Shown here one piece after another: positions 14,310 to 41,891 of a stretch of 64,000 bases of DNA. Both the position numbers and the translations under genes were made by a program. The notes under the pieces were generated by a model, which was not told the DNA's origin, did no database searches, and was given only the letters and a program-made list of their open reading frames with translations. Origin of the DNA: Escherichia phage kaaroe. The DNA lies in the sequence record MN850574.1. The stretch is one strand, 5' to 3'. How positions within the stretch are numbered: position 1 is the stretch's first letter; every line of letters begins with the position of its first letter.

Positions 14310-14338
14310 TTGACAACCATAAACGACTATAGCATAAT
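14310..14338 (+). promoter_or_regulatory. early promoter TTGACA-17-CATAAT
   Basis: -35 at 14310-14315, -10 at 14333-14338, conserved leader CATCGAAACGAAACAC, RBS AGGAGAATCAAAAATG. Confidence 0.6.
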
Positions 14339-14376
14339 GCACACATCGAAACGAAACACACTTAGGAGAATCAAAA

Positions 14377-14754
14377 ATGATGATGATGTTTAAAGATAAA
14401 TTCGAATGTCACTACACCCGTAACTTTGACTTAGTATCCCGCTACTACATTCATAAAGAAACTGGCACGCAAGTAGTTCTTGAATCTCACAGCGAAGTAG
14501 GATTCGATTCAACAAAAGTAGCAATTAGTGCTCGCTTCTGGGATAACGGCAAATTTGCTTATATCGCTTGGAACGACGACGAAAATGTAATTACAGTAGC
14601 TTTCGGTGATGACTACTACACTAAAAAGACTTTCGATAGCAAGCCATCAAATGAATACCTGAAAGCGTATGTGCAGCACATGTTCCAACGTGTTCTGACC
14701 GGAATGGAAATCAATGTCATGAAAGACATTGTAGACGAAGTAAAATATTCTTAA
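14377..14754 (+). CDS. hypothetical early protein (125 aa)
   Basis: ORF directly behind promoter with strong RBS. Confidence 0.6.
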   Translation: MMMMFKDKFECHYTRNFDLVSRYYIHKETGTQVVLESHSEVGFDSTKVAISARFWDNGKFAYIAWNDDENVITVAFGDDYYTKKTFDSKPSNEYLKAYVQHMFQRVLTGMEINVMKDIVDEVKYS

Positions 14755-15885: not shown

Positions 15886-16100
15886 AAATGACTTTTTATA
15901 TCTTAGCAAGTATCATTCTTGTGATCTCTTCTGCCTTATTTGCATTTCTTACCGTTTGGGGGGTCTGTACTGATGCGAAGCCGTGGGATATCGTAGAAAA
16001 TACGGTTATGTTTATTATTAGTGTCATGTGTCTTTTTGATGCATTTAACTCTATCAAGGAAGAAGACCAAAAACGTCGCGATAGAAAGCGATATAAATAA
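15882..16100 (+). CDS. 2-TM membrane miniprotein (72 aa) with basic C-tail
   Basis: ATGA overlap; two hydrophobic helices then KRRDRKRYK. Confidence 0.55.
   Translation: MKMTFYILASIILVISSALFAFLTVWGVCTDAKPWDIVENTVMFIISVMCLFDAFNSIKEEDQKRRDRKRYK
16092..16099 (+). promoter_or_regulatory. T4-type late promoter box TATAAATA
   Basis: Exact TATAAATA overlapping stop codon of upstream ORF; followed by 150 nt non-coding structured region. Confidence 0.35.
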
Positions 16101-16248
16101 TAGTGAACTAAAGACAGCGCGGTTAGAATGATTTGGACGTCACCTAGCCGCATTTATTGCGGCGTATGGGCGATCCGGTACGCTAAAGCATTAACTTGCT
16201 AGGCCGCTAGCAGGTTGGAGACAAGGAAGATTCGCTACCTTCCCTATA
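16101..16248 (+). ncRNA. candidate small structured RNA (unclassified)
   Basis: No ORF; three hairpins (16147-16163, 16197-16212, 16225-16243) between a late promoter box and a UUCG-loop terminator. Confidence 0.25.
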
Positions 16249-16277
16249 AGCCACTCTTCGGAGTGGCTTTTTTATTG
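16249..16277 (+). terminator. intrinsic terminator (UUCG tetraloop)
   Basis: agccactc-ttcg-gagtggct hairpin followed by TTTTTTATT. Confidence 0.7.
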
Positions 16278-16301
16278 CCTAAAATTTTTTTAAAAAAGTT
16301 G

Positions 16302-16330
16302 TTGACACCAGATCCGGCCTATAGCATAAT
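16302..16330 (+). promoter_or_regulatory. early promoter TTGACA-17-CATAAT (PeSL-like)
   Basis: -35 16302-16307, -10 16325-16330; downstream leader ACACCCATCGAAACGAAACAC. Confidence 0.65.
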
Positions 16331-16376
16331 ACACCCATCGAAACGAAACACACTTTCTTAAACGGAGAATCAAATT

Positions 16377-16562
16377 ATGGCACGTCGCATCACTAAAGCA
16401 CTGAAAGCAGTAAGCAAAGAAAACGTAGTAGCTATTCTGGTAATCTGGGGTTATAACGAAGAATCCGCTAAACAGAAAGTTGAAGCAGGGTTTGAACTGG
16501 CAGTAAAAGCAATGCCGAATGATGACTCTGTAGGACTGGCAAACTATATTGCATATTTCTGA
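16377..16562 (+). CDS. hypothetical early protein (61 aa)
   Basis: ORF behind promoter; codon usage biased to ctg/cgt/gaa/aaa. Confidence 0.6.
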   Translation: MARRITKALKAVSKENVVAILVIWGYNEESAKQKVEAGFELAVKAMPNDDSVGLANYIAYF

Positions 16563-16570
16563 TAAAAGTG

Positions 16571-16599
16571 TTGACAGGGGAGGATAACTCCCCTACAAT
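16571..16599 (+). promoter_or_regulatory. early promoter with embedded inverted repeat (PeSL-like)
   Basis: TTGACA 16571-16576, -10 TACAAT 16594-16599, IR GGGGAGG-ATAA-CTCCCC in spacer. Confidence 0.65.
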
Positions 16600-16628
16600 A
16601 CAACCATCAACGAAACGGGAGAATCAAA

Positions 16629-16856
16629 ATGATTAACTTTAAAGACGCAGCAAAAGAAATTATCGACTTTGAGCGCGAACTGTTTGAGATGGAACCGCAG
16701 ATGGGTAAAATGGAACTGGCTAACCAGATCTGGGCTACTAGACTGAATCCGGCTGATCGCTTAGAGATCATGAACCTTGTAGGTGCAAGCGACATGAAAG
16801 GTGGTGCTATGGCTAAACTCCGCAAATGCACCGCATACATTGCAGAACAACTTTAA
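16629..16856 (+). CDS. hypothetical early protein (75 aa)
   Basis: ORF behind promoter with GGGAGAATCAAAATG RBS. Confidence 0.6.
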   Translation: MINFKDAAKEIIDFERELFEMEPQMGKMELANQIWATRLNPADRLEIMNLVGASDMKGGAMAKLRKCTAYIAEQL

Positions 16857-16868
16857 TTGGAGGGTTTT

Positions 16869-17057
16869 ATGGGAGAGAAACCATTAGTACAGCTAAGAGT
16901 ACGCTATAACCAGATTTTAGCATTACTTAAAGCTGAGGGTGTAGATCCATCGGACCGCGAGGCTGCAAAAGCGTGTCTATCTGATACGGTACAGCCAAAA
17001 CAAAATTATGCTTGCTATATGTACTTTCAAAATCGTTTGAATAATGTTAAGTGTTGA
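16869..17057 (+). CDS. hypothetical protein (62 aa)
   Basis: ATG at 16869 with GGAGGG RBS (track ORF begins at TTG 16857). Confidence 0.5.
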   Translation: MGEKPLVQLRVRYNQILALLKAEGVDPSDREAAKACLSDTVQPKQNYACYMYFQNRLNNVKC

Positions 17058-17066
17058 GGTGATACT

Positions 17067-17255
17067 ATGGAAGACCAAATTGAACAATTACGCGAATCCG
17101 CTAAAGAGCATGGTATGAGCGAAGGATTTGTTGAATGGTTTATCTCTAAAAAGGTTGATTCCTGCGGGTGCTTTAACTTCATTACTATGTCCATTATGTG
17201 GGAGGGTTGGAAAGGTGCTGTAGAAACTGCCTTAAAAATTTTGAAAAAAGACTAA
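17067..17255 (+). CDS. hypothetical protein (62 aa)
   Basis: ORF with GAGGTGA RBS. Confidence 0.5.
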   Translation: MEDQIEQLRESAKEHGMSEGFVEWFISKKVDSCGCFNFITMSIMWEGWKGAVETALKILKKD

Positions 17256-17263
17256 AAAAGTTG

Positions 17264-17292
17264 TTGACACGCGATAGGGTGTATAGCATAAT
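17264..17292 (+). promoter_or_regulatory. early promoter TTGACA-17-CATAAT with IR GGGTGTAT-AGCATA-ATACACCC
   Basis: -35 17264-17269, -10 17287-17292; perfect 8-bp inverted repeat overlapping -10. Confidence 0.65.
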
Positions 17293-17334
17293 ACACCCAT
17301 CGAAACGAAACACGAACTACTAAGGAGTATCAAA

Positions 17335-17661
17335 ATGAAACCAGTATCTGTTAAAGTTATCTTCTCTGAATCTTCTGTATTCGCTAACGCAAACGAAGTA
17401 TTCCACTTCGAAGACTTCGAGCGTAAAGCACAGGACGCGGCAGCAAAAGCCTATGAAAGCGAATATGACAAAACTCAAATCGAGGTTACTTTCGAAAACG
17501 GCACTACTTACGCTTGCCGCCTTGACCTGGGTGATCGTCTGTCTGGCTTCCGTCACCATGTAGAGAAGACAATCGCTTTCTCTAAAACCGAAAAAGGAAA
17601 ACACTACTTTTCTGTTTTCGGTACTGAAAATCTGGATTTCTTGAAAACTGTTTCTTTCTAA
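17335..17661 (+). CDS. hypothetical abundant early protein (108 aa)
   Basis: ORF behind promoter; strongly biased codon usage (ttc, ctg, cgt, ggt, aac) suggesting high expression. Confidence 0.65.
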   Translation: MKPVSVKVIFSESSVFANANEVFHFEDFERKAQDAAAKAYESEYDKTQIEVTFENGTTYACRLDLGDRLSGFRHHVEKTIAFSKTEKGKHYFSVFGTENLDFLKTVSF

Positions 17662-17669
17662 GGTATATT

Positions 17670-17852
17670 ATGAAAAAGATTAATTGGTTAGCGAACATAG
17701 GCGCGGTCTGCGCCTTTAACATCCTCGGATGGATAATGTTACATTTTGATGAGCGAGTTTCAAAATGTGAGGGTGTATTGATTCTCGGATCTGCTAGCAT
17801 ATTCATTATGCTGTATGCGATTGCTGTTGACTTAATCCGCGATGGTTGTTAA
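17670..17852 (+). CDS. 2-TM membrane miniprotein (60 aa)
   Basis: Hydrophobic ORF with RBS. Confidence 0.5.
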   Translation: MKKINWLANIGAVCAFNILGWIMLHFDERVSKCEGVLILGSASIFIMLYAIAVDLIRDGC

Positions 17853-17853
17853 T

Positions 17854-18051
17854 ATGACGCTCAAGAATATGTTTTTTAACTTCGTAGGTGCTTCCATTCT
17901 TTCAATGCTATATCTTGTGATTGTATGGATGGGCGACTATGAATTAACTAACGATGAAAATTTGACAGTGTTTACTGTCTTGACGATGATCATTTACACT
18001 GTCTTTCTTGTCTTGGATTTTATTGTGTTTCTTTACAAAACGGTGACTTGA
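17854..18051 (+). CDS. 2-TM membrane miniprotein (65 aa)
   Basis: ATG 1 nt after upstream stop (alternative in-frame ATG at 17842). Confidence 0.5.
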   Translation: MTLKNMFFNFVGASILSMLYLVIVWMGDYELTNDENLTVFTVLTMIIYTVFLVLDFIVFLYKTVT

Positions 18052-18248
18052 TGACGATTAGTAAAAATGATATTGGTTTTGTTGCGGGTATCGCTAGCGT
18101 CTTTACTGTTGTTATTTTGCTAATGCTTTTACCCGGTGTATTCTCTGACCAGATTGAATTGTATGTAGCTTTTATCTGTTGCATTTATACTTGGTTTGCA
18201 ATGTTTGTGATTAGTCTAATTATGCAATTCGTCGTTAACAAATTTTAG
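18051..18248 (+). CDS. 2-TM membrane miniprotein (65 aa)
   Basis: ATG overlaps upstream stop (TGATG); track ORF begins at TTG 18048. Confidence 0.5.
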   Translation: MTISKNDIGFVAGIASVFTVVILLMLLPGVFSDQIELYVAFICCIYTWFAMFVISLIMQFVVNKF

Positions 18249-18269
18249 ATTTAATGTGAGGATTATATT

Positions 18270-18590
18270 ATGAGCAAACTGTTTGAAACTCCGCGTGAAA
18301 TTCTGATTGACAAACTGAAAGAACGTGGTTTTAAAATTAAAGATGCAACCAAATACAGCCGAATTGATGAAATTAAGTTGCATTCTCTTGATGAACTGGT
18401 AGAATATGTTGCGGCGGTTGCTGATCCGCAGTTTGATGTGATTGTAGGCGACGTTGAATATCTCGATAATGTATATTCATTCTTCACTTATGGTAAAATT
18501 GTGTCTGTGAAAATTTCATTCTGTGAAAATGTGGAGGTGCTTGCTAGTGAACCAGAAAAACCAACTGACAACGGTCCTTCGGCAGCGTAA
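18270..18590 (+). CDS. hypothetical protein (106 aa)
   Basis: ORF with GAGGATTATATTATG RBS. Confidence 0.55.
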   Translation: MSKLFETPREILIDKLKERGFKIKDATKYSRIDEIKLHSLDELVEYVAAVADPQFDVIVGDVEYLDNVYSFFTYGKIVSVKISFCENVEVLASEPEKPTDNGPSAA

Positions 18591-25643: not shown

Positions 25644-26239
25644 TGGCGCAATTATATTTCTACTATGCATCTATGAACGCTGGCAAATCAACTTCTCTGT
25701 TACAAAGTGCTTATAACTATACCGAACGTGATATGCGAGTATTAATTCTTAAGCCAGCGATTGATAATCGAGATTCAGAAAGTGAAGTTGTTTCCCGAAT
25801 TGGTCTAAGTGCTCCAGCGATCACCTTCACTGAATCGGATGATCTTTTCGACTTGGTTTATCGTGAATCGTTAGGTAAGCGTAGACCAGATCGCTGGCGT
25901 CCTGATGCTGTATTTGTAGATGAAGCCCAATTTATGACTAAAGAGCATGTTTTAGGCTTGTGTGCGCTTGTTGATGATGCAAATATCCCTGTACTGTGCT
26001 ATGGCCTTCGCACTGACTTTCAGGGCAATCTATTTGAAGGATCTGCGGCATTGATGGCATTTGCTGATAAACTGGTCGAAATGAAGGGTATTTGTCATTG
26101 TGGCAAGAAAGCAACAATGGTCCTTCGTGTAGATAAAGAGGGTAATGTTATTCGCGATGGTGCTCAAATCGAAGTTGGTGCAGAGGATAAATATGTTTCT
26201 GTGTGCCGTAAACATTTTATTGATGGCACTACCAACTAA
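25643..26239 (+). CDS. tk: thymidine kinase
   Basis: 198 aa; P-loop ASMNAGKST, VDEAQF, CxxC...CxxH zinc motif; similar to T4 Tk. Confidence 0.85.
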   Translation: MAQLYFYYASMNAGKSTSLLQSAYNYTERDMRVLILKPAIDNRDSESEVVSRIGLSAPAITFTESDDLFDLVYRESLGKRRPDRWRPDAVFVDEAQFMTKEHVLGLCALVDDANIPVLCYGLRTDFQGNLFEGSAALMAFADKLVEMKGICHCGKKATMVLRVDKEGNVIRDGAQIEVGAEDKYVSVCRKHFIDGTTN

Positions 26240-26258
26240 GAGTTAATCATAAATAAAG

Positions 26259-26298
26259 CCCCAGATTATAAATATAACTGAATATTTTAAATCTGGGG
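26259..26298 (+). promoter_or_regulatory. stem-loop (9-bp stem) enclosing an exact late promoter box TATAAATA
   Basis: ccccagatt...aatctgggg inverted repeat; TATAAATA at 26267-26274; 34 nt upstream of ATG 26308. Confidence 0.4.
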
Positions 26299-26307
26299 GA
26301 ATGACTT

Positions 26308-26610
26308 ATGTCATTTATTCGTAAAACTCTAACAGCGGCAATATGCTTGACTGCGGTCGGAAGTGTCAGTGCTGATCAATATGATCCAACTGGTGACTTT
26401 ACTGATTATTTCGACGGTGCAATGATAGTATATGTAAACAAAATATCTCCTTCCATTGAAACCAGCCAGAAATTTCATGCCCATATTATGAAGATGTATG
26501 CTCGTAGTAAATGTATGGATTCTAAGCAGTGTTTTATTATGGGGGAATATGCCGCACAACAGTTTGTTATGTTGCATAATATGGAGAATAGAGAACATGA
26601 AATTCATTGA
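26308..26610 (+). CDS. secreted hypothetical protein (100 aa)
   Basis: Signal peptide MSFIRKTLTAAICLTAVGSVSA. Confidence 0.55.
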   Translation: MSFIRKTLTAAICLTAVGSVSADQYDPTGDFTDYFDGAMIVYVNKISPSIETSQKFHAHIMKMYARSKCMDSKQCFIMGEYAAQQFVMLHNMENREHEIH

Positions 26611-26995
26611 TTTTCTAAAGACGTCCGAAGAGGGGAAAGCTAATAAAGTTGACCGCTTTATCGGTGAATGTCTGATGAGTGTTACTTATATGCATTCTGC
26701 GCATTTTGGGGTAACTGGTCCTAGATCTTATGCAAAACATAAGGCTCTAGAAGAGTTCTATCTTGAAATGCAAGAATTGGTTGATGATTTCACTGAAACC
26801 AATATTGGGATCACTGGTCGTTATCAGCCAACGTTGGTCGTCCGCAAGGAGATTAGCGAAATTGCCTATTTGCAAGAGTTAACGCAAATGGCTAGTGAGA
26901 TTTATAATGATGTTGATAGCTCGTTACAGAGCGTTTTAGACGATATCAAAGCTCTATGTTTTAAAACAATTTATAAACTCACTCGACTGTCTTAA
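26597..26995 (+). CDS. hypothetical protein (132 aa), weak ferritin/Dps-like helix pattern
   Basis: ATG at 26597 (track ORF begins 26498); pattern YMHSAHFGVTG...LEEFYLE unverified. Confidence 0.5.
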   Translation: MKFIDFLKTSEEGKANKVDRFIGECLMSVTYMHSAHFGVTGPRSYAKHKALEEFYLEMQELVDDFTETNIGITGRYQPTLVVRKEISEIAYLQELTQMASEIYNDVDSSLQSVLDDIKALCFKTIYKLTRLS

Positions 26996-27229
26996 TGTTA
27001 GTCACCGTGGGATGCATACCAGAAGTAAAAGAATACTAGCATTAACACAACTATTTGGCTTCCTCATACTTTCGCGTGTTCAATTACTGCCGAATCGGAA
27101 GACCCGTCTAAGACGAGGAAGGGTTATCATTGGAAAGGGATGGTGAATTGGTTACTATGTTTAACTAGTTTAGCAAAGGTCGATTCAAACACTACTATAC
27201 AAATGGACGTGAATAAAATATAATCAAAA

Positions 27230-27258
27230 GCCATCCGAAAGGGTGGCTTTTTCGTTTT
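27230..27258 (+). terminator. intrinsic terminator (GAAA tetraloop, conserved family)
   Basis: gccatcc-gaaa-gggtggc hairpin then TTTTTCGTTTTT. Confidence 0.7.
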
Positions 27259-27264
27259 TAGGTG

Positions 27265-27293
27265 TTGACAACCGGAATAGGGTATATCATAAT
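27265..27293 (+). promoter_or_regulatory. early promoter TTGACA-17-CATAAT
   Basis: -35 27265-27270, -10 27288-27293, leader GCACACATCGACAAC. Confidence 0.65.
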
Positions 27294-27322
27294 GCACACA
27301 TCGACAACAAAGGAGAATCAAA

Positions 27323-27478
27323 ATGATTAATCCAGTAGCCGCAGCACTTGCTTCCGAAGAAACTTTGAAGTATATGGTAGAACATGCAGCAAAGAAAGGA
27401 GAAATTGTTGCTGCCGATGAGATCGTAGAAACCATGCTCCGCGATCCGAAGGGTAACACCGCAAAGTTTTTTCGGTGA
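27323..27478 (+). CDS. small protein (51 aa)
   Basis: ATG behind promoter with AAAGGAGAATCAAA RBS; below track cutoff. Confidence 0.45.
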   Translation: MINPVAAALASEETLKYMVEHAAKKGEIVAADEIVETMLRDPKGNTAKFFR

Positions 27479-27522
27479 TCATCTTAAACTGGCTTACAAA
27501 ACCATTATGGAGACCGTGAAGA

Positions 27523-27861
27523 ATGCAAAATGATGTGATTGAAATTATTATGAATCAATACCGAAACCGGATTTGGTCTGGACGTATCAAAGAAGAAAAG
27601 GCAAAACGGATCATCGAAAAATATGCTGAAAAGACTAAGCAAGCGCCAACGGCTAACAGAGTTATGATTCTTAAATGTCTGGTGCTTTCCGGTGACGATA
27701 TGCCTATTGATGCAGAGACAGCCACCGATTTTCATAAGACCTATCGCCAGTGTGATGTAATTTTTACTTCTGGCTTCGGTAGTTATGACTCTATTATGTG
27801 GAATTTAATGCACCTTGACTCAACGATCTGGGATGTGCTTTCAGAGGAGGGTTACAAATGA
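27523..27861 (+). CDS. hypothetical protein (112 aa)
   Basis: ORF with RBS. Confidence 0.5.
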   Translation: MQNDVIEIIMNQYRNRIWSGRIKEEKAKRIIEKYAEKTKQAPTANRVMILKCLVLSGDDMPIDAETATDFHKTYRQCDVIFTSGFGSYDSIMWNLMHLDSTIWDVLSEEGYK

Positions 27862-28208
27862 ACATTGACATTCAACGACTAATTGATCACCTTCATGCGG
27901 GAATACCTTATCATGGCGACGTTACCCGCGATATTCTTGATGTGTTGGAATATACCCAGCAAGTGATCAACGAAAAGCAAGCATTAGAATCACGGATCGA
28001 CGAGGCAATAGGAAATATTGCAACCGAAGATGAATTAGATAATCACTTTGGACCTGTTCTTGATGCTCTTATGGCTGCGCGTGATACCAAACTGAAACAG
28101 GATAAACAAGAATTTATCCTTGATGGTTTAGCTCGTTATCACAATGCAATTGATATTATGAATAACCAGCATGATTATGCTATTAGTATTTTGCGAGGTC
28201 TGGCATGA
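27858..28208 (+). CDS. hypothetical protein (116 aa)
   Basis: ORF with GGAGGG RBS; start overlaps upstream stop. Confidence 0.5.
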   Translation: MNIDIQRLIDHLHAGIPYHGDVTRDILDVLEYTQQVINEKQALESRIDEAIGNIATEDELDNHFGPVLDALMAARDTKLKQDKQEFILDGLARYHNAIDIMNNQHDYAISILRGLA

Positions 28209-28489
28209 AAGACACAAACGAATTTAACGGTATTAAGGTAAGCCCGAATTTTATTGTTCCATCACTGGTGACTAAGCTGAATGGTCATATGGTCGCTTTG
28301 TCTTCCACACCGCCAGAATCAGGAAAGTTTATCACTATCGTAGTTTATGCGGGGCAAATTTTCTCTCATGATTGCTGCATGAAAAATGGTCAGTTGATGG
28401 TTGCAAATTATGACTATGGAGACCTTGAATGGGAAGTTTTAGATCTGGCTAAAAGTGCTGAAATTCTGGGCTATATTCGATTAGTTTAA
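28205..28489 (+). CDS. hypothetical protein (94 aa)
   Basis: ORF overlapping upstream stop. Confidence 0.5.
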   Translation: MKDTNEFNGIKVSPNFIVPSLVTKLNGHMVALSSTPPESGKFITIVVYAGQIFSHDCCMKNGQLMVANYDYGDLEWEVLDLAKSAEILGYIRLV

Positions 28490-28506
28490 AAATTTCTTAG
28501 AAAGTG

Positions 28507-28535
28507 TTGACAGCGATCCGGTGTTATTGCATAAT
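28507..28535 (+). promoter_or_regulatory. early promoter TTGACA-17-CATAAT (PeSL-like)
   Basis: -35 28507-28512, -10 28530-28535, leader ACACCCATCGAAACGAGATACAC. Confidence 0.65.
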
Positions 28536-28576
28536 ACACCCATCGAAACGAGATACACTTTCTAGGAGAATCAAAA

Positions 28577-28798
28577 ATGGCAACTGTTAAAATTATCAAA
28601 TCTTCCGCTGGTTTCGGTTTCATGCGTGGCGCTAAGTACCCGATGATTATTGAAAACGTTGCCATCGAAGATGGTATGGCTAAAGTAACCAGCCGTCAAT
28701 TGTTCGAAGCGGGTGTTAAAACTGCTGAATCATGGGCGCTTCGCTATCCTAACAAAACATGGTCTTTCTTCCTGGATGGTGAAGCAGAGGTCATCTAA
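28577..28798 (+). CDS. hypothetical abundant early protein (73 aa), KIEIID-family relative
   Basis: VKIIKSSAGFGFMRGAKYPMIIENV resembles 30924/31140 paralogs; biased codon usage. Confidence 0.6.
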   Translation: MATVKIIKSSAGFGFMRGAKYPMIIENVAIEDGMAKVTSRQLFEAGVKTAESWALRYPNKTWSFFLDGEAEVI

Positions 28799-28816
28799 GT
28801 AATATTATCAATCAAT

Positions 28817-28840
28817 GCCCCTTAATTGGGGCTTTTCTTG
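28817..28840 (+). terminator. intrinsic terminator
   Basis: gcccc-ttaatt-ggggc hairpin then TTTTCTTG. Confidence 0.55.
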
Positions 28841-28852
28841 TGAGGAAATTTT

Positions 28853-29638
28853 ATGGCAATATCTTCTGGATGGGTAGGATCATCTGCTGTGTCCGAGACT
28901 GGTCAACGGTGGATGAGCGCCGCAATGCAAGCTGTACGCTTAGGTCGTCCGGCGTATATGTCGGCAATGGTCGGACGCTCTAAAGAGATTCATTATAGCA
29001 TTGGTGCTAGTAACTCTTACAATAAAGACACTCTTATTAACTGGATGAAAGCACAAGGATCTACTCCGGTAGTAATTACTATCACGGGTAATATTGTTTC
29101 CCAATCTACTGGCGTTCCTTGTCTTGATTTCCCTAGCTCACTGACAAACGAATATGTAACACTCATTATTAACTCTGGTGTTCATGTATTAGGTCGTGGA
29201 GGAAATGGCGGAAGTAACTCTGCTGGTGGAGCAGGAGGAAATGCAATAAATAACGGAATTGGAACTCGTTTAAGAATAAACAATAATGGTATTATTGGTG
29301 GTGGCGGTGGTGGCGGTGCTGGTGCTAGATACAATCCTTTCCCTCAAATGGATATGAAATTTGGCGGCGGTGGAGGCCGTCCATTTGGTGCTGCGGGTGC
29401 GGCAGGAGGCGGCGCAGCGGCAGCATCTGCTGGTACAATTTCTGCCCCAGGTAAAGGCACTGTTTCTGGGGTTCATTATGGAGGAGATGGTGGAGATTTG
29501 GGAGCTGCTGGCAAATCTTCATATATTAAAGGTGGTACTGGTGGAACTGTTCACTCGGGTGGTGCTGCGGGTAAAGCTGTTACTGGTAATGCCCCTCGCT
29601 GGGATAAAGTAGGCACGATCTACGGTGCTCGCGTGTAA
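28853..29638 (+). CDS. glycine-rich protein resembling gp38-type tail-fibre adhesin
   Basis: 261 aa; N-terminus GSSAVSETGQRWMS and GRGGNGGSNSAGGAGG plus poly-Gly tracts resemble remembered T2-type gp38. Confidence 0.5.
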   Translation: MAISSGWVGSSAVSETGQRWMSAAMQAVRLGRPAYMSAMVGRSKEIHYSIGASNSYNKDTLINWMKAQGSTPVVITITGNIVSQSTGVPCLDFPSSLTNEYVTLIINSGVHVLGRGGNGGSNSAGGAGGNAINNGIGTRLRINNNGIIGGGGGGGAGARYNPFPQMDMKFGGGGGRPFGAAGAAGGGAAAASAGTISAPGKGTVSGVHYGGDGGDLGAAGKSSYIKGGTGGTVHSGGAAGKAVTGNAPRWDKVGTIYGARV

Positions 29639-29645
29639 TTTTATG

Positions 29646-29677
29646 GGCTATCCTTCGGGGTAGCCTTTTTTGTTTTT
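29646..29677 (+). terminator. intrinsic terminator (UUCG tetraloop)
   Basis: ggctatcc-ttcg-gggtagcc hairpin then TTTTTTGTTTTT. Confidence 0.7.
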
Positions 29678-29682
29678 GGGTG

Positions 29683-29710
29683 TTGACAAAGATAATCACA
29701 ATGCTATAAT
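29683..29710 (+). promoter_or_regulatory. early promoter TTGACA-16-TATAAT
   Basis: -35 29683-29688, -10 29705-29710. Confidence 0.65.
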
Positions 29711-29739
29711 GCACGCATACCAACTAAGGAGAATCAAAG

Positions 29740-30030
29740 ATGACCACTGAACAATTAATCAAGCATATCCGAAACATCATCTGGGATCTGTCTGGTGATA
29801 AAGAGGAACAAGCTGAACGCATTTTGGCTAAACTCTATAAGCGCCGTGACCGTGGATTATCAGCAAAGAAAGTAGAAACTTTCAAAGAGTTATCTTTCAT
29901 CGAAGCTAAAAAGGATGGATTAATTTATCAGTTGACAGATGGTTATTGGTGCTATGATAATACTCGCTATGACACCGCGACCGATGCATTAAAAGCATGT
30001 AATGACCATCTTCGCAAAACTACAATTTGA
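29740..30030 (+). CDS. hypothetical protein (96 aa)
   Basis: ORF behind promoter, AAGGAGAATCAAAG RBS. Confidence 0.55.
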   Translation: MTTEQLIKHIRNIIWDLSGDKEEQAERILAKLYKRRDRGLSAKKVETFKELSFIEAKKDGLIYQLTDGYWCYDNTRYDTATDALKACNDHLRKTTI

Positions 30031-30040
30031 GGATTATATT

Positions 30041-30238
30041 ATGAAGGTTAAAACATTGGCTGATATGGATGAGATCGAGACTCAAGTACATGCGGCGCTA
30101 GTCGGTTATGAGTTCGGGCGATTCCTTAATAAGTTCCATGATTATAAATGCTTAAATTGTGGTGCTCATAACGTAATTGGTGCTTGCTGTATTAATCCTG
30201 TTATAGTACCATATAAAAGAAATGAAACAGAAGAGTGA
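30041..30238 (+). CDS. small Cys-rich protein (65 aa)
   Basis: ATG with GAGGATTATATTATG RBS; CLNCGAHNVIGACC. Confidence 0.5.
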   Translation: MKVKTLADMDEIETQVHAALVGYEFGRFLNKFHDYKCLNCGAHNVIGACCINPVIVPYKRNETEE

Positions 30239-30248
30239 GGAATATAGA

Positions 30249-30683
30249 ATGAAAAAGTTGATGGCGACCTTTCATGATATGCGAGATCTACCAGGTTTAG
30301 CACATGTCGATTTTCCTGTTACTATGGAAGTGTCGGAATATGACGGTTATCATGATATTCTGTTTATTAAAAACACTGAGTTTATCCGCTTAGGCGCTAA
30401 ACCTGCTGTACTATACCCAGAAGGAAACCGGACAGCGGTCAGAAAAACAAATTCTGTTAAATTGGCATTTAGTTCAGATGTTGGCTTGGAACCCGCTTTC
30501 GGATATACTCCGGTCGAGATCACAAAATCGAATACTTCTTTCGTGAAAGTTGGAGAGAAAACGCATATTTCAACTATGCCGAACGGTGCACAATATCTAT
30601 GGTCCGATTTCTGCCAGCGTTATGAGCGTTTATCATGGGCTACCCGCTTATGGTGTGTTGAGTATAAGGAGATCACAAAATGA
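30249..30683 (+). CDS. hypothetical protein (144 aa)
   Basis: ATG at 30249 with GAGGAATATAGA RBS (track ORF begins 30222). Confidence 0.5.
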   Translation: MKKLMATFHDMRDLPGLAHVDFPVTMEVSEYDGYHDILFIKNTEFIRLGAKPAVLYPEGNRTAVRKTNSVKLAFSSDVGLEPAFGYTPVEITKSNTSFVKVGEKTHISTMPNGAQYLWSDFCQRYERLSWATRLWCVEYKEITK

Positions 30684-30934
30684 TCACCGGATATATTCCA
30701 TATTCAACGACAAAACACATTATCGGATTCGAAGACATAGAAAAGTCTTGCTTTCCTCTCAAGGTTGAAGTAGACTTTATTACAGCGAACGGATGGGCTT
30801 ACGTCACTGTTTCAGAAATGAAGCGCGTAGGGTGGGAAAACTGCATACACCTACCGCATCTTATCCTAGATGTTCGCGCTGGTGAAATTGATATTGCTGG
30901 AAAGATCTATGGAGACAATGTAAATGAAAATTGA
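30680..30934 (+). CDS. hypothetical protein (84 aa)
   Basis: ORF overlapping upstream stop. Confidence 0.5.
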   Translation: MITGYIPYSTTKHIIGFEDIEKSCFPLKVEVDFITANGWAYVTVSEMKRVGWENCIHLPHLILDVRAGEIDIAGKIYGDNVNEN

Positions 30935-31121
30935 AATTATTGATGACGGTGGATTTTCTTTCATGAATGGCGTTAAACTTCCTATCATCGTGGAAGGTCG
31001 TCGTTATGGGCTTGATTATCTTGTAGAAACGCAGGAACTACAAAAAGCTGGCGTACCAATTAAAGGTTATTTTCCTGAATATGAATGGTGTTTTCGTGCA
31101 AATGAAGCCTGGGCGGTATAA
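30924..31121 (+). CDS. KIEIID-family small protein, paralog A
   Basis: MKIEIIDDGGFSFMNGVKLPIIVEG...YEWCF. Confidence 0.5.
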   Translation: MKIEIIDDGGFSFMNGVKLPIIVEGRRYGLDYLVETQELQKAGVPIKGYFPEYEWCFRANEAWAV

Positions 31122-31139
31122 CTAATTGAGGATTATATT

Positions 31140-31397
31140 ATGAAGATTGAAATTATTGACCGTGCTGGGTATACTTTCATGGAAAAAGTTAAACTTCCTA
31201 TCATTGTTGAAGGTCGCCCATTATGTCAAGGATTCATGATAAAGACCAGAGAACTACGAAATGCGGGTGTTCCTGTTGAATCATGTTTCAGTGATGATTA
31301 TGAATGGTGTTTCAGTGGTTTACGTGCACATAAAGTAAAAGAAGCACGAAAAGCATCATGGTTTGCTAGCTTTAATAACTGGTTGAGGAAACTGTGA
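31140..31397 (+). CDS. KIEIID-family small protein, paralog B
   Basis: MKIEIIDRAGYTFMEKVKLPIIVEG...YEWCF; tandem with 30924. Confidence 0.55.
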   Translation: MKIEIIDRAGYTFMEKVKLPIIVEGRPLCQGFMIKTRELRNAGVPVESCFSDDYEWCFSGLRAHKVKEARKASWFASFNNWLRKL

Positions 31398-31735
31398 TGT
31401 GTGAAATGAAAAAGTATATGATTCTAAGTGATTCAGGATACACCTTCTTACAAGGTATTGATAGTGACTCGCGTCCTATTGTATATGGAAAAGAACATCC
31501 GACCATTCCTGAGATCATTCTTGTTACGACAACATCACTTCGTAGAGTGTCAGAAAGTCCATACCTACAAAACGTAAAGCAGGACCGAGAATGGGCTTTC
31601 GAGTTAGGTAAAGACCTTGTTGAATGGGTAAACTGTGAAGACAAGAACCAACGAAATCATGAAGGGAAGATTTCACGAATTGTACTGAGAGGAAAACTTG
31701 ATGAAATCAAAAACAGGATTCTACAATCAATGTAA
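31397..31735 (+). CDS. hypothetical protein (112 aa)
   Basis: ATG overlapping upstream stop (TGATG). Confidence 0.5.
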   Translation: MCEMKKYMILSDSGYTFLQGIDSDSRPIVYGKEHPTIPEIILVTTTSLRRVSESPYLQNVKQDREWAFELGKDLVEWVNCEDKNQRNHEGKISRIVLRGKLDEIKNRILQSM

Positions 31736-31955
31736 CAGGGTATTCATTGTCCTGCTGGATTCGGAAAACTATCCAGAACTCTCTAAAACGCGTTTTCCGT
31801 GCGTTGTTGAAGCACGCAAGGCATATGCACCAGATAAACAGTTTATAGTGTTAGCGAGCGAAATAGAGCGGTTAGGGGCGATTCCTAAACATGATGAATA
31901 TGTGTTTTGTAAGGCGTTCTCTGTGCCTCATTTTGGTGTAGAGTTAATTCACTAA
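31701..31955 (+). CDS. hypothetical protein (84 aa)
   Basis: ATG at 31701, overlaps upstream 3' end. Confidence 0.5.
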   Translation: MKSKTGFYNQCNRVFIVLLDSENYPELSKTRFPCVVEARKAYAPDKQFIVLASEIERLGAIPKHDEYVFCKAFSVPHFGVELIH

Positions 31956-31972
31956 AATCATAAAAAAAGTTG

Positions 31973-32001
31973 TTGACAGGGGATCGGTGATCCCCTATAC
32001 T
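31973..32001 (+). promoter_or_regulatory. early promoter with embedded inverted repeat (PeSL-like)
   Basis: TTGACA 31973-31978, -10 TATACT 31996-32001, IR GGGGATC-GGT-GATCCCC. Confidence 0.65.
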
Positions 32002-32043
32002 ACACACATCAAAACGAAACACACTTTCTTAAGGAGAATCAAA

Positions 32044-32322
32044 ATGAGCAACCTGTCTTTCGCTAAAGTAGAAATTTCTAAAACTCGCGGTGGCTTTAAA
32101 ATCAAAACTTCCAACATCACTTCCTGTCGTGGTTGCGTCCGGTTTGCGTTCGACTTGGCAGCGAAGCTGGGTATTAAAACCTTTACCGTTGAGAGCGGAT
32201 CTACCTGGACCACTCTGATTGTTACTGCCGCTTGGATCAATGGCGAGTATGTAGAAAAAGCATACTTTGACATTTTCTATGACTACGAAGAAAAATGCTT
32301 TTATGCACTGCAAGACATGTAA
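32044..32322 (+). CDS. hypothetical abundant early protein (92 aa)
   Basis: ATG behind promoter (track ORF begins 31987); biased codon usage. Confidence 0.6.
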   Translation: MSNLSFAKVEISKTRGGFKIKTSNITSCRGCVRFAFDLAAKLGIKTFTVESGSTWTTLIVTAAWINGEYVEKAYFDIFYDYEEKCFYALQDM

Positions 32323-41667: not shown

Positions 41668-41696
41668 TTGACGGGGATCGCGAGATCCCCTATACT
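41668..41696 (+). promoter_or_regulatory. early promoter with embedded inverted repeat (PeSL-like, -35 TTGACG)
   Basis: TTGACG 41668-41673, -10 TATACT 41691-41696, IR GGGGATCGCGAGATCCCC. Confidence 0.6.
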
Positions 41697-41738
41697 ATAT
41701 TCATCAAGACGAGATACAACTTTACAGGAGAATCAAAT

Positions 41739-41891
41739 ATGTGGACTTTACTGATTTGGGAAACTGAAAACGCACAAGTAGAAATCCGTGAATACGAATA
41801 CCTAAGCCCAGCTTATCTATTAGCATCTCGCGGTGGTTACTATAAAGCGCAGATTGTAAACGAGTTCGGGGTAATTGAATATGAGTTCTGA
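41739..41891 (+). CDS. small protein (50 aa)
   Basis: ATG with AGGAGAATCAAAT RBS behind promoter. Confidence 0.4.
   Translation: MWTLLIWETENAQVEIREYEYLSPAYLLASRGGYYKAQIVNEFGVIEYEF

Follow-up and report, generated by a model that had tools for sequence, protein, structure and literature searches.

Genomes of phages RB49 and phi1 carry cassettes termed PeSLs, in which strong promoters are combined with terminators and which serve as recombination sites that shuffle open reading frames (ORFs) of unknown function (PMC2839356). In experiments they proved to be very strong promoters, and the activity of one of them, PeSL206/205, was measured at ~13,000 Miller units (PMC2839356). Here, we analyze a 64,000-nucleotide stretch of Escherichia phage kaaroe (sequence record MN850574.1; hereafter, the window), in which four small ORFs, named after their start positions 16377, 17335, 28577 and 32044, stand directly behind cassettes of this kind and have the highest codon adaptation index (CAI) of all genes in the window. 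The window is ~97% identical to RB49-group genomes, so the cassettes discussed here are the very PeSL elements already described. By PeSL cassette we mean a strong sigma-70-type promoter with a stem-loop and a ribosome-binding site. The cassettes of the window share with the published ones the succession of an AT-rich stretch, −35 and −10 elements, a G+C-rich stem-loop, a ribosome-binding site and an ATG, with an ORF of unknown function directly behind, in a hyperplastic region (Arbiol et al. 2010, PMC2839356; Comeau et al. 2014, PMC4122927).

A second body of work concerns translational selection in phages, where high-copy genes use host-preferred codons, as here (Lucks et al. 2008, PMC2266997; Sharp & Li CAI). 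Across phages, CAI was found elevated in structural (head) versus non-structural genes, and the genome-landscape CAI test was not significant for RB49 (p 0.25) (Lucks et al., PMC2266997). The novel ORFs of RB49 and four other phages were reported to have the same CAI as conserved genes (Nolan et al. 2006, PMC1524935). The four ORFs of the window and about a dozen similar genes of RB49-type phages depart from this picture and, judged by their sequences, probably encode very highly expressed first-minute proteins.

Codon adaptation of the four ORFs

The four ORFs take ranks 1 to 4 in CAI among the 124 genes of the window, whose median is ~0.29:

17335..17661, plus strand: ORF 17335, 108 residues, corresponding to RB49 p113, a solo LPD25 protein; GGAG at 17324–17327; CAI 0.660, the window's highest; z 5.7
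16377..16562, plus strand: ORF 16377, 61 residues, corresponding to RB49 p117 (100% identical), Pfam DUF7421; CAI 0.576; z 3.5
28577..28798, plus strand: ORF 28577, 73 residues, corresponding to RB49 p080; GGAG at 28565–28568; CAI 0.561; z 3.5
32044..32322, plus strand: ORF 32044, 92 residues, corresponding to RB49 p070; GGAG at 32033–32036; CAI 0.537; z 3.7

The z scores come from resampling synonymous codons from window-wide usage with the protein sequence kept, 5000 times per ORF; in each of the four, the observed value lay above all 5000 resamples. All four values fall inside the range of E. coli ribosomal-protein genes, which is 0.45–0.73 on the Sharp–Li scale, where the weakly expressed gsp and tus genes give 0.16–0.30. 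A preliminary description of this DNA, made from the letters alone, had held that these ORFs use the codons of highly expressed genes, unlike the small ORFs around them, and the ORF-by-ORF CAI bears out both statements: neighbouring small ORFs have values of 0.15–0.43, and CAI falls sharply downstream, from 0.66 in ORF 17335 to 0.20, 0.21 and 0.28 in the following ORFs, and from 0.54 in ORF 32044 to 0.27. The four thus differ clearly from other genes of the phage.

The bias is confined to the coding frame, with a CAI of 0.54–0.66 in the annotated frame versus 0.12–0.32 in the five others. G+C content at third codon positions is not shifted (0.32–0.47 in the four ORFs versus ~0.37 window-wide). 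In two-fold families ending in a pyrimidine, C accounts for 66% of codons in the four ORFs versus 35% elsewhere; in four-fold boxes it is T that rises, to 47% versus 40% elsewhere. These opposite third-base preferences exclude a directional mutation bias and fit the major tRNAs of E. coli; the codon bias is a signature of selection, not of base composition. The most telling codons are CTG (71% versus 21% elsewhere), TTC (74% versus 34%), AAC (77% versus 41%) and AAA (90% versus 68%), and TCT, ACT, GAC and ATC are also preferred, while TTA, CTA, CTC, CGA, AGA, AGG, ATA, ACG, TCG, AGT and GTG are not used at all. The preliminary description had the four ORFs using seven codons almost exclusively. 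Those seven are indeed enriched, but exclusivity was overstated: they make up 81%, 76%, 81% and 62% of the codons for their amino acids in ORFs 16377, 17335, 28577 and 32044, respectively, compared with ~47% window-wide. Of the codons it listed, CTG, TTC, AAC and AAA do discriminate, whereas GGT (55% versus 51%) and GAA (79% versus 71%) reflect a general preference of the phage.

CAI was computed with the Sharp–Li E. coli weights and again with weights derived from 31 MG1655 ribosomal-protein, tufA, fusA and rpoA genes; the two tables correlate at r = 0.976 (log w) and leave the ordering of genes unchanged. The 124 gene models comprise 122 RB49 models carried over by BLASTP with their starts kept and two cut at the ends of the locus. 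The window runs as the reverse complement of about 11–75 kb of RB49, in the order baseplate genes, a long block of small early ORFs, and replication genes. Its segment 16000–33000 matches ~50 RB49-group coliphages (among them FL37, Sf20, GEC-3S, Phi1, JSE and RB49) over the full length at 96–98% identity; these T4-type coliphages make up the genus Krischvirus of the Straboviridae.

Promoters, leaders and gene position

The signals ahead of the four ORFs, and the hairpin behind one of them, are as follows:

16248..16269, plus strand: terminator-like stem-loop of 9 bp, AAGCCACTC/GAGTGGCTT, followed by a T-run, in an AT-rich stretch; part of the PeSL of ORF 16377
16302..16330, plus strand: early sigma-70-type promoter of ORF 16377, with TTGACA at 16302–16307, a 17-nt spacer and CATAAT at 16325–16330
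16331..16376, plus strand: long A/C-rich leader of ORF 16377, ACACCCATCGAAACGAAACACACTTTCTTAAACGGAGAATCAAATT, with GGAG at 16364–16367
17264..17292, plus strand: early promoter of ORF 17335, TTGACA-17-CATAAT; an 8-bp stem-loop, GGGTGTAT/ATACACCC (17277–17298), overlaps the −10 element
28507..28535, plus strand: early promoter of ORF 28577, TTGACA-17-CATAAT
28817..28832, plus strand: terminator-like hairpin directly after ORF 28577, separating this monocistronic unit from the adhesin gene gp38 that follows
31973..32001, plus strand: early promoter of ORF 32044, TTGACA-17-TATACT; an 8-bp stem-loop, AGGGGATC/GATCCCCT (31978–31996), lies between −35 and −10

The four cassettes are built to one plan. 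Each promoter matches the consensus at 11 of 12 positions and ends 41–46 nt before the ATG, and each ATG is preceded by GGAG at 7–9 nt. The earlier placement of the ORFs directly behind PeSL-like promoters therefore stands, with a sigma-70-type −35/−10 pair before each and a stem-loop in three of the four: upstream of −35 for ORF 16377, overlapping −10 for ORF 17335 and in the spacer for ORF 32044. Around the −10 element of ORF 28577 there is no more than a weak and imperfect inverted repeat. ORF 32044 starts at the ATG at 32044, behind AAGGAG, and not at the GTG at 31987 given by a mechanical ORF list. The GEC-3S record annotates promoters at the homologous places; there and in RB49 the four ORFs are annotated as hypothetical, within clusters of small ORFs. 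Besides ORF 28577, ORF 16377 is also a single-gene unit, closed by the stem-loop of the next PeSL.

High CAI follows position behind a promoter throughout RB49. Among the 278 RB49 genes (median 0.30, 95th percentile 0.50), the highest values belong to the major capsid gene gp23 (0.71), p190 (0.63), p113 and p205 (0.61 each), gp67 and p193 (0.60 each), p198 (0.585), p117 (0.576), gp32 (0.54), p080 (0.535), p070 (0.526), p210 (0.525) and p263 (0.52), followed by gp22 (0.50), gp19 and gp18 (0.47 each) and gp45 (0.45); ORF205, at 0.61, is the ORF behind PeSL206/205. A reference set taken from the phage itself (gp23, 18, 19, 22 and 32) gave a Spearman correlation of 0.94 and placed the four ORFs at ranks 1, 8, 12 and 13 of 273. 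In codon adaptation, a dozen or more small ORFs, the four among them, are on a par with the genes of the most abundant proteins known from T4-type phages. Median CAI in RB49 is 0.387 for ORFs that come first after an early promoter (n = 52), 0.293 for second, 0.291 for third, 0.287 for fourth and 0.296 for fifth or later ORFs (first versus later, Mann–Whitney p = 1.7e-11); CAI exceeds 0.45 in 33% of first ORFs and in 0–5% of later ones. The window alone gives 0.356 for first and 0.288 for later ORFs (p = 2e-5).

Among first ORFs, CAI also differs with the leader. When the RB49 cassettes were split into leader classes, a division defined after inspection of the data, those with the long leader ACGA[AG]A[CT]AC plus GGAGAATCA had a median CAI of 0.526 (n = 11); the median was 0.388 (n = 17) where the same ribosome-binding site followed a short leader, and 0.323 (n = 25) for other ribosome-binding sites. 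The long leaders are near-identical, with the consensus CATCGAAACGA(A/G)A(C/T)ACAC...(A)GGAGAATCAAA-ATG, and the class takes in all four ORFs and ORF 14380. GGAG ribosome-binding sites precede 38 of the 53 first ORFs versus 44 of the 225 other genes (odds ratio 10, p = 1e-12), and 16 of the 17 first ORFs with the highest CAI. The preliminary description named the four leading ORFs correctly but missed others of the same kind, namely ORF 16629 and ORF 14380. The related units in the window are:

16571..16856, plus strand: similar unit with promoter 16571–16599 (stem-loop in the spacer), a short leader and a 75-residue ORF, 16629–16856; CAI 0.51, z 3.5
14310..14754, plus strand: similar unit just outside the range covered by the preliminary description, with promoter 14310–14338, a long leader and a 124-residue ORF, 14380–14754; CAI 0.476
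41668..41891, plus strand: sixth long-leader cassette in the window, with promoter 41668–41696 and a 50-residue ORF, 41739–41891; CAI 0.393, the weakest of its class

ORF 16629–16856 is 73% identical to its RB49 counterpart, versus 95–100% for its neighbours, and the CAI of the window allele is 0.51 versus 0.415.

A proposed burst of early translation

The likely explanation, in our judgement, is translational selection on the burst-expressed, immediate-early first cistrons of PeSL cassettes. The four ORFs would be the first, and mostly the sole, cistrons of immediate-early transcription units. Neither the window nor the whole RB49 genome contains a tRNA gene, as published for RB49 (PMC1524935); the phage would depend wholly on host tRNAs, and selection would shape its synonymous codons toward the abundant tRNAs of E. 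coli. Messages of the first minute would have to compete with host messenger RNA (mRNA) and would need fast, bulk translation. A near-consensus promoter followed by a strong, unstructured GGAG site would load the first cistron heavily with ribosomes, and with such loading selection for elongation efficiency would be strongest in that cistron. Promoter, leader, GGAG site and codon usage would then form one module tuned for maximal expression.

The same GGAG may set the duration of the burst. In T4, RegB inactivates early messages by cutting GGAG. The window encodes a homologue:

23021..23443, plus strand: regB homologue, 100% identical to RB49 RegB

The RB49 record notes that this enzyme cleaves early mRNAs at GGAG. 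Such cutting would limit translation to a short, intense burst, in which fast elongation would be especially valuable. Since three independent signals coincide, namely a consensus promoter, a strong GGAG site on an unstructured leader and optimal codons, we infer that the products are abundant and made early.

Several points weigh against this explanation. The promoters of the four ORFs are matches to a consensus rather than mapped start sites, and the leader classes, as said, were drawn post hoc. Leader length taken by itself, measured from the −10 element to the ATG, is no predictor of CAI (rho 0.13, p = 0.28), and leaders grouped as long or short by length show no difference (p 0.15). The predicted structure of the initiation region is ~−2 kcal/mol in all leader classes and has no correlation with CAI (rho 0.00). 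ORFs 22681, 23530, 27323 and 29740 are promoter-proximal with a CAI of only 0.25–0.33, so that proximity to a promoter alone is insufficient; the long-leader cassette of ORF 41739 likewise reaches only 0.39. The four ORFs are short (61–108 codons), and each CAI has a wide sampling error, for which the resampling allows. A search of the literature for proteomic or transcriptomic work on Krischvirus expression found nothing relevant.

The same features could also have arisen if codons were optimised for speed and timing, or for protection of the mRNA by dense ribosomes, rather than for a high final level: modest quantities of product would suffice, but within seconds, ahead of the inactivation of the message by RegB or host RNases. 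The concentration of GGAG sites in first ORFs, above all in those with the highest CAI, agrees with this, as do the presence of RegB among the phage's own proteins and the monocistronic, hairpin-bounded form of several units. Bias of equal strength, however, accompanies high abundance in E. coli and in gp23, gp32 and gp22, and we regard a codon optimisation without high product levels as unlikely; it also overlaps selection for abundant early products rather than excluding it.

Homologues with and without the cassette

Diverged homologues allow the persistence of the bias to be followed. In ~58 Krischvirus genomes these ORFs are at least 95% identical, and more distant homologues were therefore used to assess synonymous turnover. 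The p113 homologue of a metagenomic T4-like contig (L009), 74% identical, stands directly behind a PeSL and has a CAI of 0.647, compared with 0.66 in the window, whereas its downstream neighbours have 0.18–0.31. At 26 of the 79 conserved residues the two genes use different synonymous codons, many of the swaps being between well-used codons (e.g., GTT/GTA, GCA/GCT, ACT/ACC, GGT/GGC). A p070 homologue on a second T4-like contig (L014), 64% identical, has the same long leader and a CAI of 0.662 versus 0.54. Homologues of p070 also occur in a chromosomal integrated element of Salmonella (71% identical) and E. coli (63% identical), where no such promoter precedes them and CAI is 0.35 and 0.28, respectively. 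The p070 copies with and without the cassette form a natural experiment, in which codon usage follows regulatory context within one protein family.

The third case lies outside the T4-like phages. DUF7421, the family of ORF 16377, has ~115 homologues of 60–80% identity in the T1-like Drexlerviridae. In phage tonn (NC_049815) the copy has a CAI of 0.583, compared with 0.576 for p117, among neighbours at 0.15–0.46; it keeps the same −10 element and the leader GCATAATA..CATCGAAACGAGATTGAGGAAA, with a G+C stem-loop (GCCAGGC...GCCTGGC) ahead of the −10 element. ORF, −10 element and CATCGAAACGA leader align between window positions 16285–16565 and positions 2425–2689 of the tonn locus L017 at ~80% nucleotide identity. 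On this alignment the tonn unit reads as a PeSL-like cassette outside the T4-like phages, a case the PeSL papers do not mention. Between homologues of 64–79% amino-acid identity, 33–42% of conserved residues have changed synonymous codon with CAI kept. High CAI thus travels with the cassette: it withstands substantial synonymous turnover and is missing from copies that lack the cassette. This points to ongoing translational selection tied to expression context and argues against chance, protein composition and simple inheritance from a well-adapted donor.

Inheritance, by which a donor phage or element with genes generally well suited to E. coli would recently have supplied both the ORFs and their cassettes, is made conceivable by the mobility of PeSL and ORFan cassettes (PMC2839356), by the likeness of the p117 unit to that of T1-like phages and by the presence of the p070 family in chromosomal elements. 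Yet the candidate donors do not have generally high CAI: the tonn homologue is a local peak (0.58 against 0.15–0.46), and the chromosomal p070 copies are low (0.28–0.35). CAI has, moreover, been kept between homologues across a synonymous turnover of 33–42% of conserved residues, and more than 12 unrelated ORFs share the bias, tracking position behind the promoter. Neither p113 nor p080 has a homologue outside Krischvirus in the phage collection. An inherited bias is accordingly improbable.

Translational selection on early first cistrons can be extended to a wider proposal, to which we give only tentative credence: long-leader PeSL units may be self-contained, mobile maximal-expression modules, each uniting a consensus promoter, the A/C-rich leader, a RegB-cleavable GGAG site and a codon-optimised ORF, and spread over the unrelated coliphage families Straboviridae and Drexlerviridae and over chromosomal elements, with codons re-tuned by the presence of the cassette and with stoichiometric takeover or anti-defence proteins as cargo. 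CAI and leader class would then offer a cheap, genome-only predictor of such proteins.

Two observations concern the surroundings of these homologues. On L009, the gene just upstream of the PeSL of the LPD25 homologue (998–1528) encodes a GmrSD_N domain protein; the restriction enzymes of the GmrSD family act on modified DNA and make an unusual cargo for a phage early region. The integrated element (L012 4747–8846 in Salmonella; L015 4332–7945 in E. coli) lies next to csgDEFG. Three or more of its ORFs are homologous to small early ORFs of Krischvirus type; one belongs to the p070 family and another to a family with the pattern MxITKT...ARRRGIE, members of which are also found on L014 and in phage tonn. 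The element further encodes a UvsW-like helicase, a large serine recombinase and CapR-like genes, and it may be a satellite, a defence island or a prophage remnant.

Early or late synthesis

The preliminary description had also suggested that the products might be internal-protein-like. In T4, the internal proteins IPI–III travel inside the capsid and are injected along with the DNA. If the four products were of this type, their codon bias would stem from late, high-level synthesis. Their small size and variability between genomes would suit such a role, and the internal-protein loci of T-even phages have been described as analogues of PeSL regions (Arbiol et al., PMC2839356). The signals at the four ORFs speak otherwise. 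The upstream promoters are of the early, sigma-70 type; the late promoter motif TATAAATA occurs three times in the window but is absent from the 100 nt ahead of each of the four; and between the nearest copy, at 16092, and ORF 16377 stands the terminator-like hairpin at 16248–16269. The N-termini (MARRITKALK, MKPVSVKVIF, MATVKIIKSS and MSNLSFAKVE) bear by eye no resemblance to the capsid-targeting sequence of T4, which the prohead protease cleaves, and no sequence is shared among the four proteins. The comparison with internal proteins is thus not upheld, and packaged products are a very remote prospect.

Least probable, and strongly disfavoured, is an origin of the bias in sampling noise or as a mutational by-product of heavy transcription or local composition: the ORFs have only 61–108 codons and short ORFs of the window range in CAI from 0.15 to 0.66, but the z scores of 3.5–5.7 with 0 of 5000 resamples, the unchanged third-position G+C with opposite preferences in two-fold and four-fold families, the frame specificity, the replication in diverged homologues and the genome-wide position effect (p = 2e-11) all stand against it.

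What the four proteins may be

The four proteins are mutually unrelated in sequence and show no relation to any family of known role. A sequence search of all Protein Data Bank chains returned nothing meaningful for them, NCBIfam gave no match, and in PHROGs they match only families of unknown function. ORF 16377 matches Pfam DUF7421 (PF24196) over its full length, residues 1–61, at 136 bits against a cut-off of 27. ORF 28577 has homologues only within Krischvirus. The predicted model of ORF 32044 is of moderate quality, with weak similarity to the DcrB/SciW fold.

More can be said of ORF 17335, whose residues 2–84 match Pfam LPD25 (PF18840) at 53.8 bits against a cut-off of 27 (E 3e-14). An exhaustive HMMER search collected relatives in 105 cluster representatives at the 50% level, carrying the same Pfam domain; in many of them it forms the N-terminal domain of proteins of 300–1100 residues, together with LPD29, DUF3560 and sometimes a methyltransferase. 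Residues E12 and E29 are invariant across 47 relatives. The predicted model (predicted local distance difference test, pLDDT, 96.6) has a four-stranded sheet with one helix, followed by a C-terminal part of three helices, and found no neighbour among solved structures. A role in host takeover, as proposed in the preliminary description, is plausible for the four products; the only lead toward it comes from p113, a solo LPD25 protein. That they act stoichiometrically on host targets, in takeover or anti-defence, is speculative.

Other features of the region

The stretch from 16101 to 16376, upstream of ORF 16377, is 276 nt without an annotated gene and starts just after the late-promoter-like TATAAATA at 16092–16099; it includes the hairpin at 16248–16269, a strong terminator-like structure, and has no Rfam match, and an Rfam scan of the whole window matched no RNA family. 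Gene vs.6 (20961–21377) matches the Pfam glycyl-radical domain in its C-terminal part (E 1.5e-16) and in this resembles the small GrcA/YfiD "spare part" proteins, and its CAI is raised (0.43, z 3.5) though it is not promoter-proximal. The gp38 adhesin (28853–29638) is 78% identical to that of RB49 and ORF 514–846 is 73% identical, versus ~97–100% for most genes, a divergence suggestive of variation in host range and in hyperplastic regions. Two RB49 genes, those of the HNH endonuclease p040 and of the methyltransferase p143, lack a counterpart in the window; p143 may lie beyond its left edge.

Comparison with known systems

The general design recalls T7 gene 0.3 (Ocr), a small first early protein that is abundant and acts stoichiometrically on a host system. 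It too is encoded by a small ORF directly behind the strongest early promoters for host RNA polymerase. No resemblance to Ocr or to any anti-defence protein of solved structure, in sequence or in fold, was found for the four ORFs. For p113 the nearest described relatives are the LPD25 proteins, in which the domain otherwise stands at the N-terminus of the polyvalent proteins carried by conjugative elements (Iyer et al. 2017, PMC5512222); here the same domain forms a solo protein of 108 residues in a lytic phage.

In kind, the phenomenon is ordinary: translational selection on highly expressed genes in cassettes that have already been described. The PeSL papers treat these as regulatory and recombination cassettes and leave downstream codon usage and leader sub-classes unmentioned (PMC2839356, PMC4122927). 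The association of codon optimisation with cassette and leader class, as well as the PeSL-like cassette in a T1-like phage, appear to be new, being apparently unreported in the literature searched. A practical use follows from them. In T4-like phages, the small early genes without an assigned function number well over a hundred, and it has long been difficult to decide which of them to study. A filter on sequence, which takes the first ORF behind an early promoter with a long A/C-rich leader and a CAI of at least ~0.5, yields about a dozen genes per Krischvirus genome, with CAI values that match the single-strand-binding protein gene gp32 and approach gp23. Such a profile would be expected of bulk first-minute proteins, such as inhibitors, decoys and sponges.

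Set beside earlier surveys, the pattern differs from that of Lucks et al. in that, below gp23, the strongest codon bias falls on small early ORFs that are non-structural. The statements of Lucks et al. and of Nolan et al. are compatible with the bulk of the small ORFs (median 0.28) but miss the promoter-proximal subset. The four ORFs and their RB49 counterparts correct two published impressions, that novel phage ORFs are neutral in CAI and that a high CAI is a property of structural genes.

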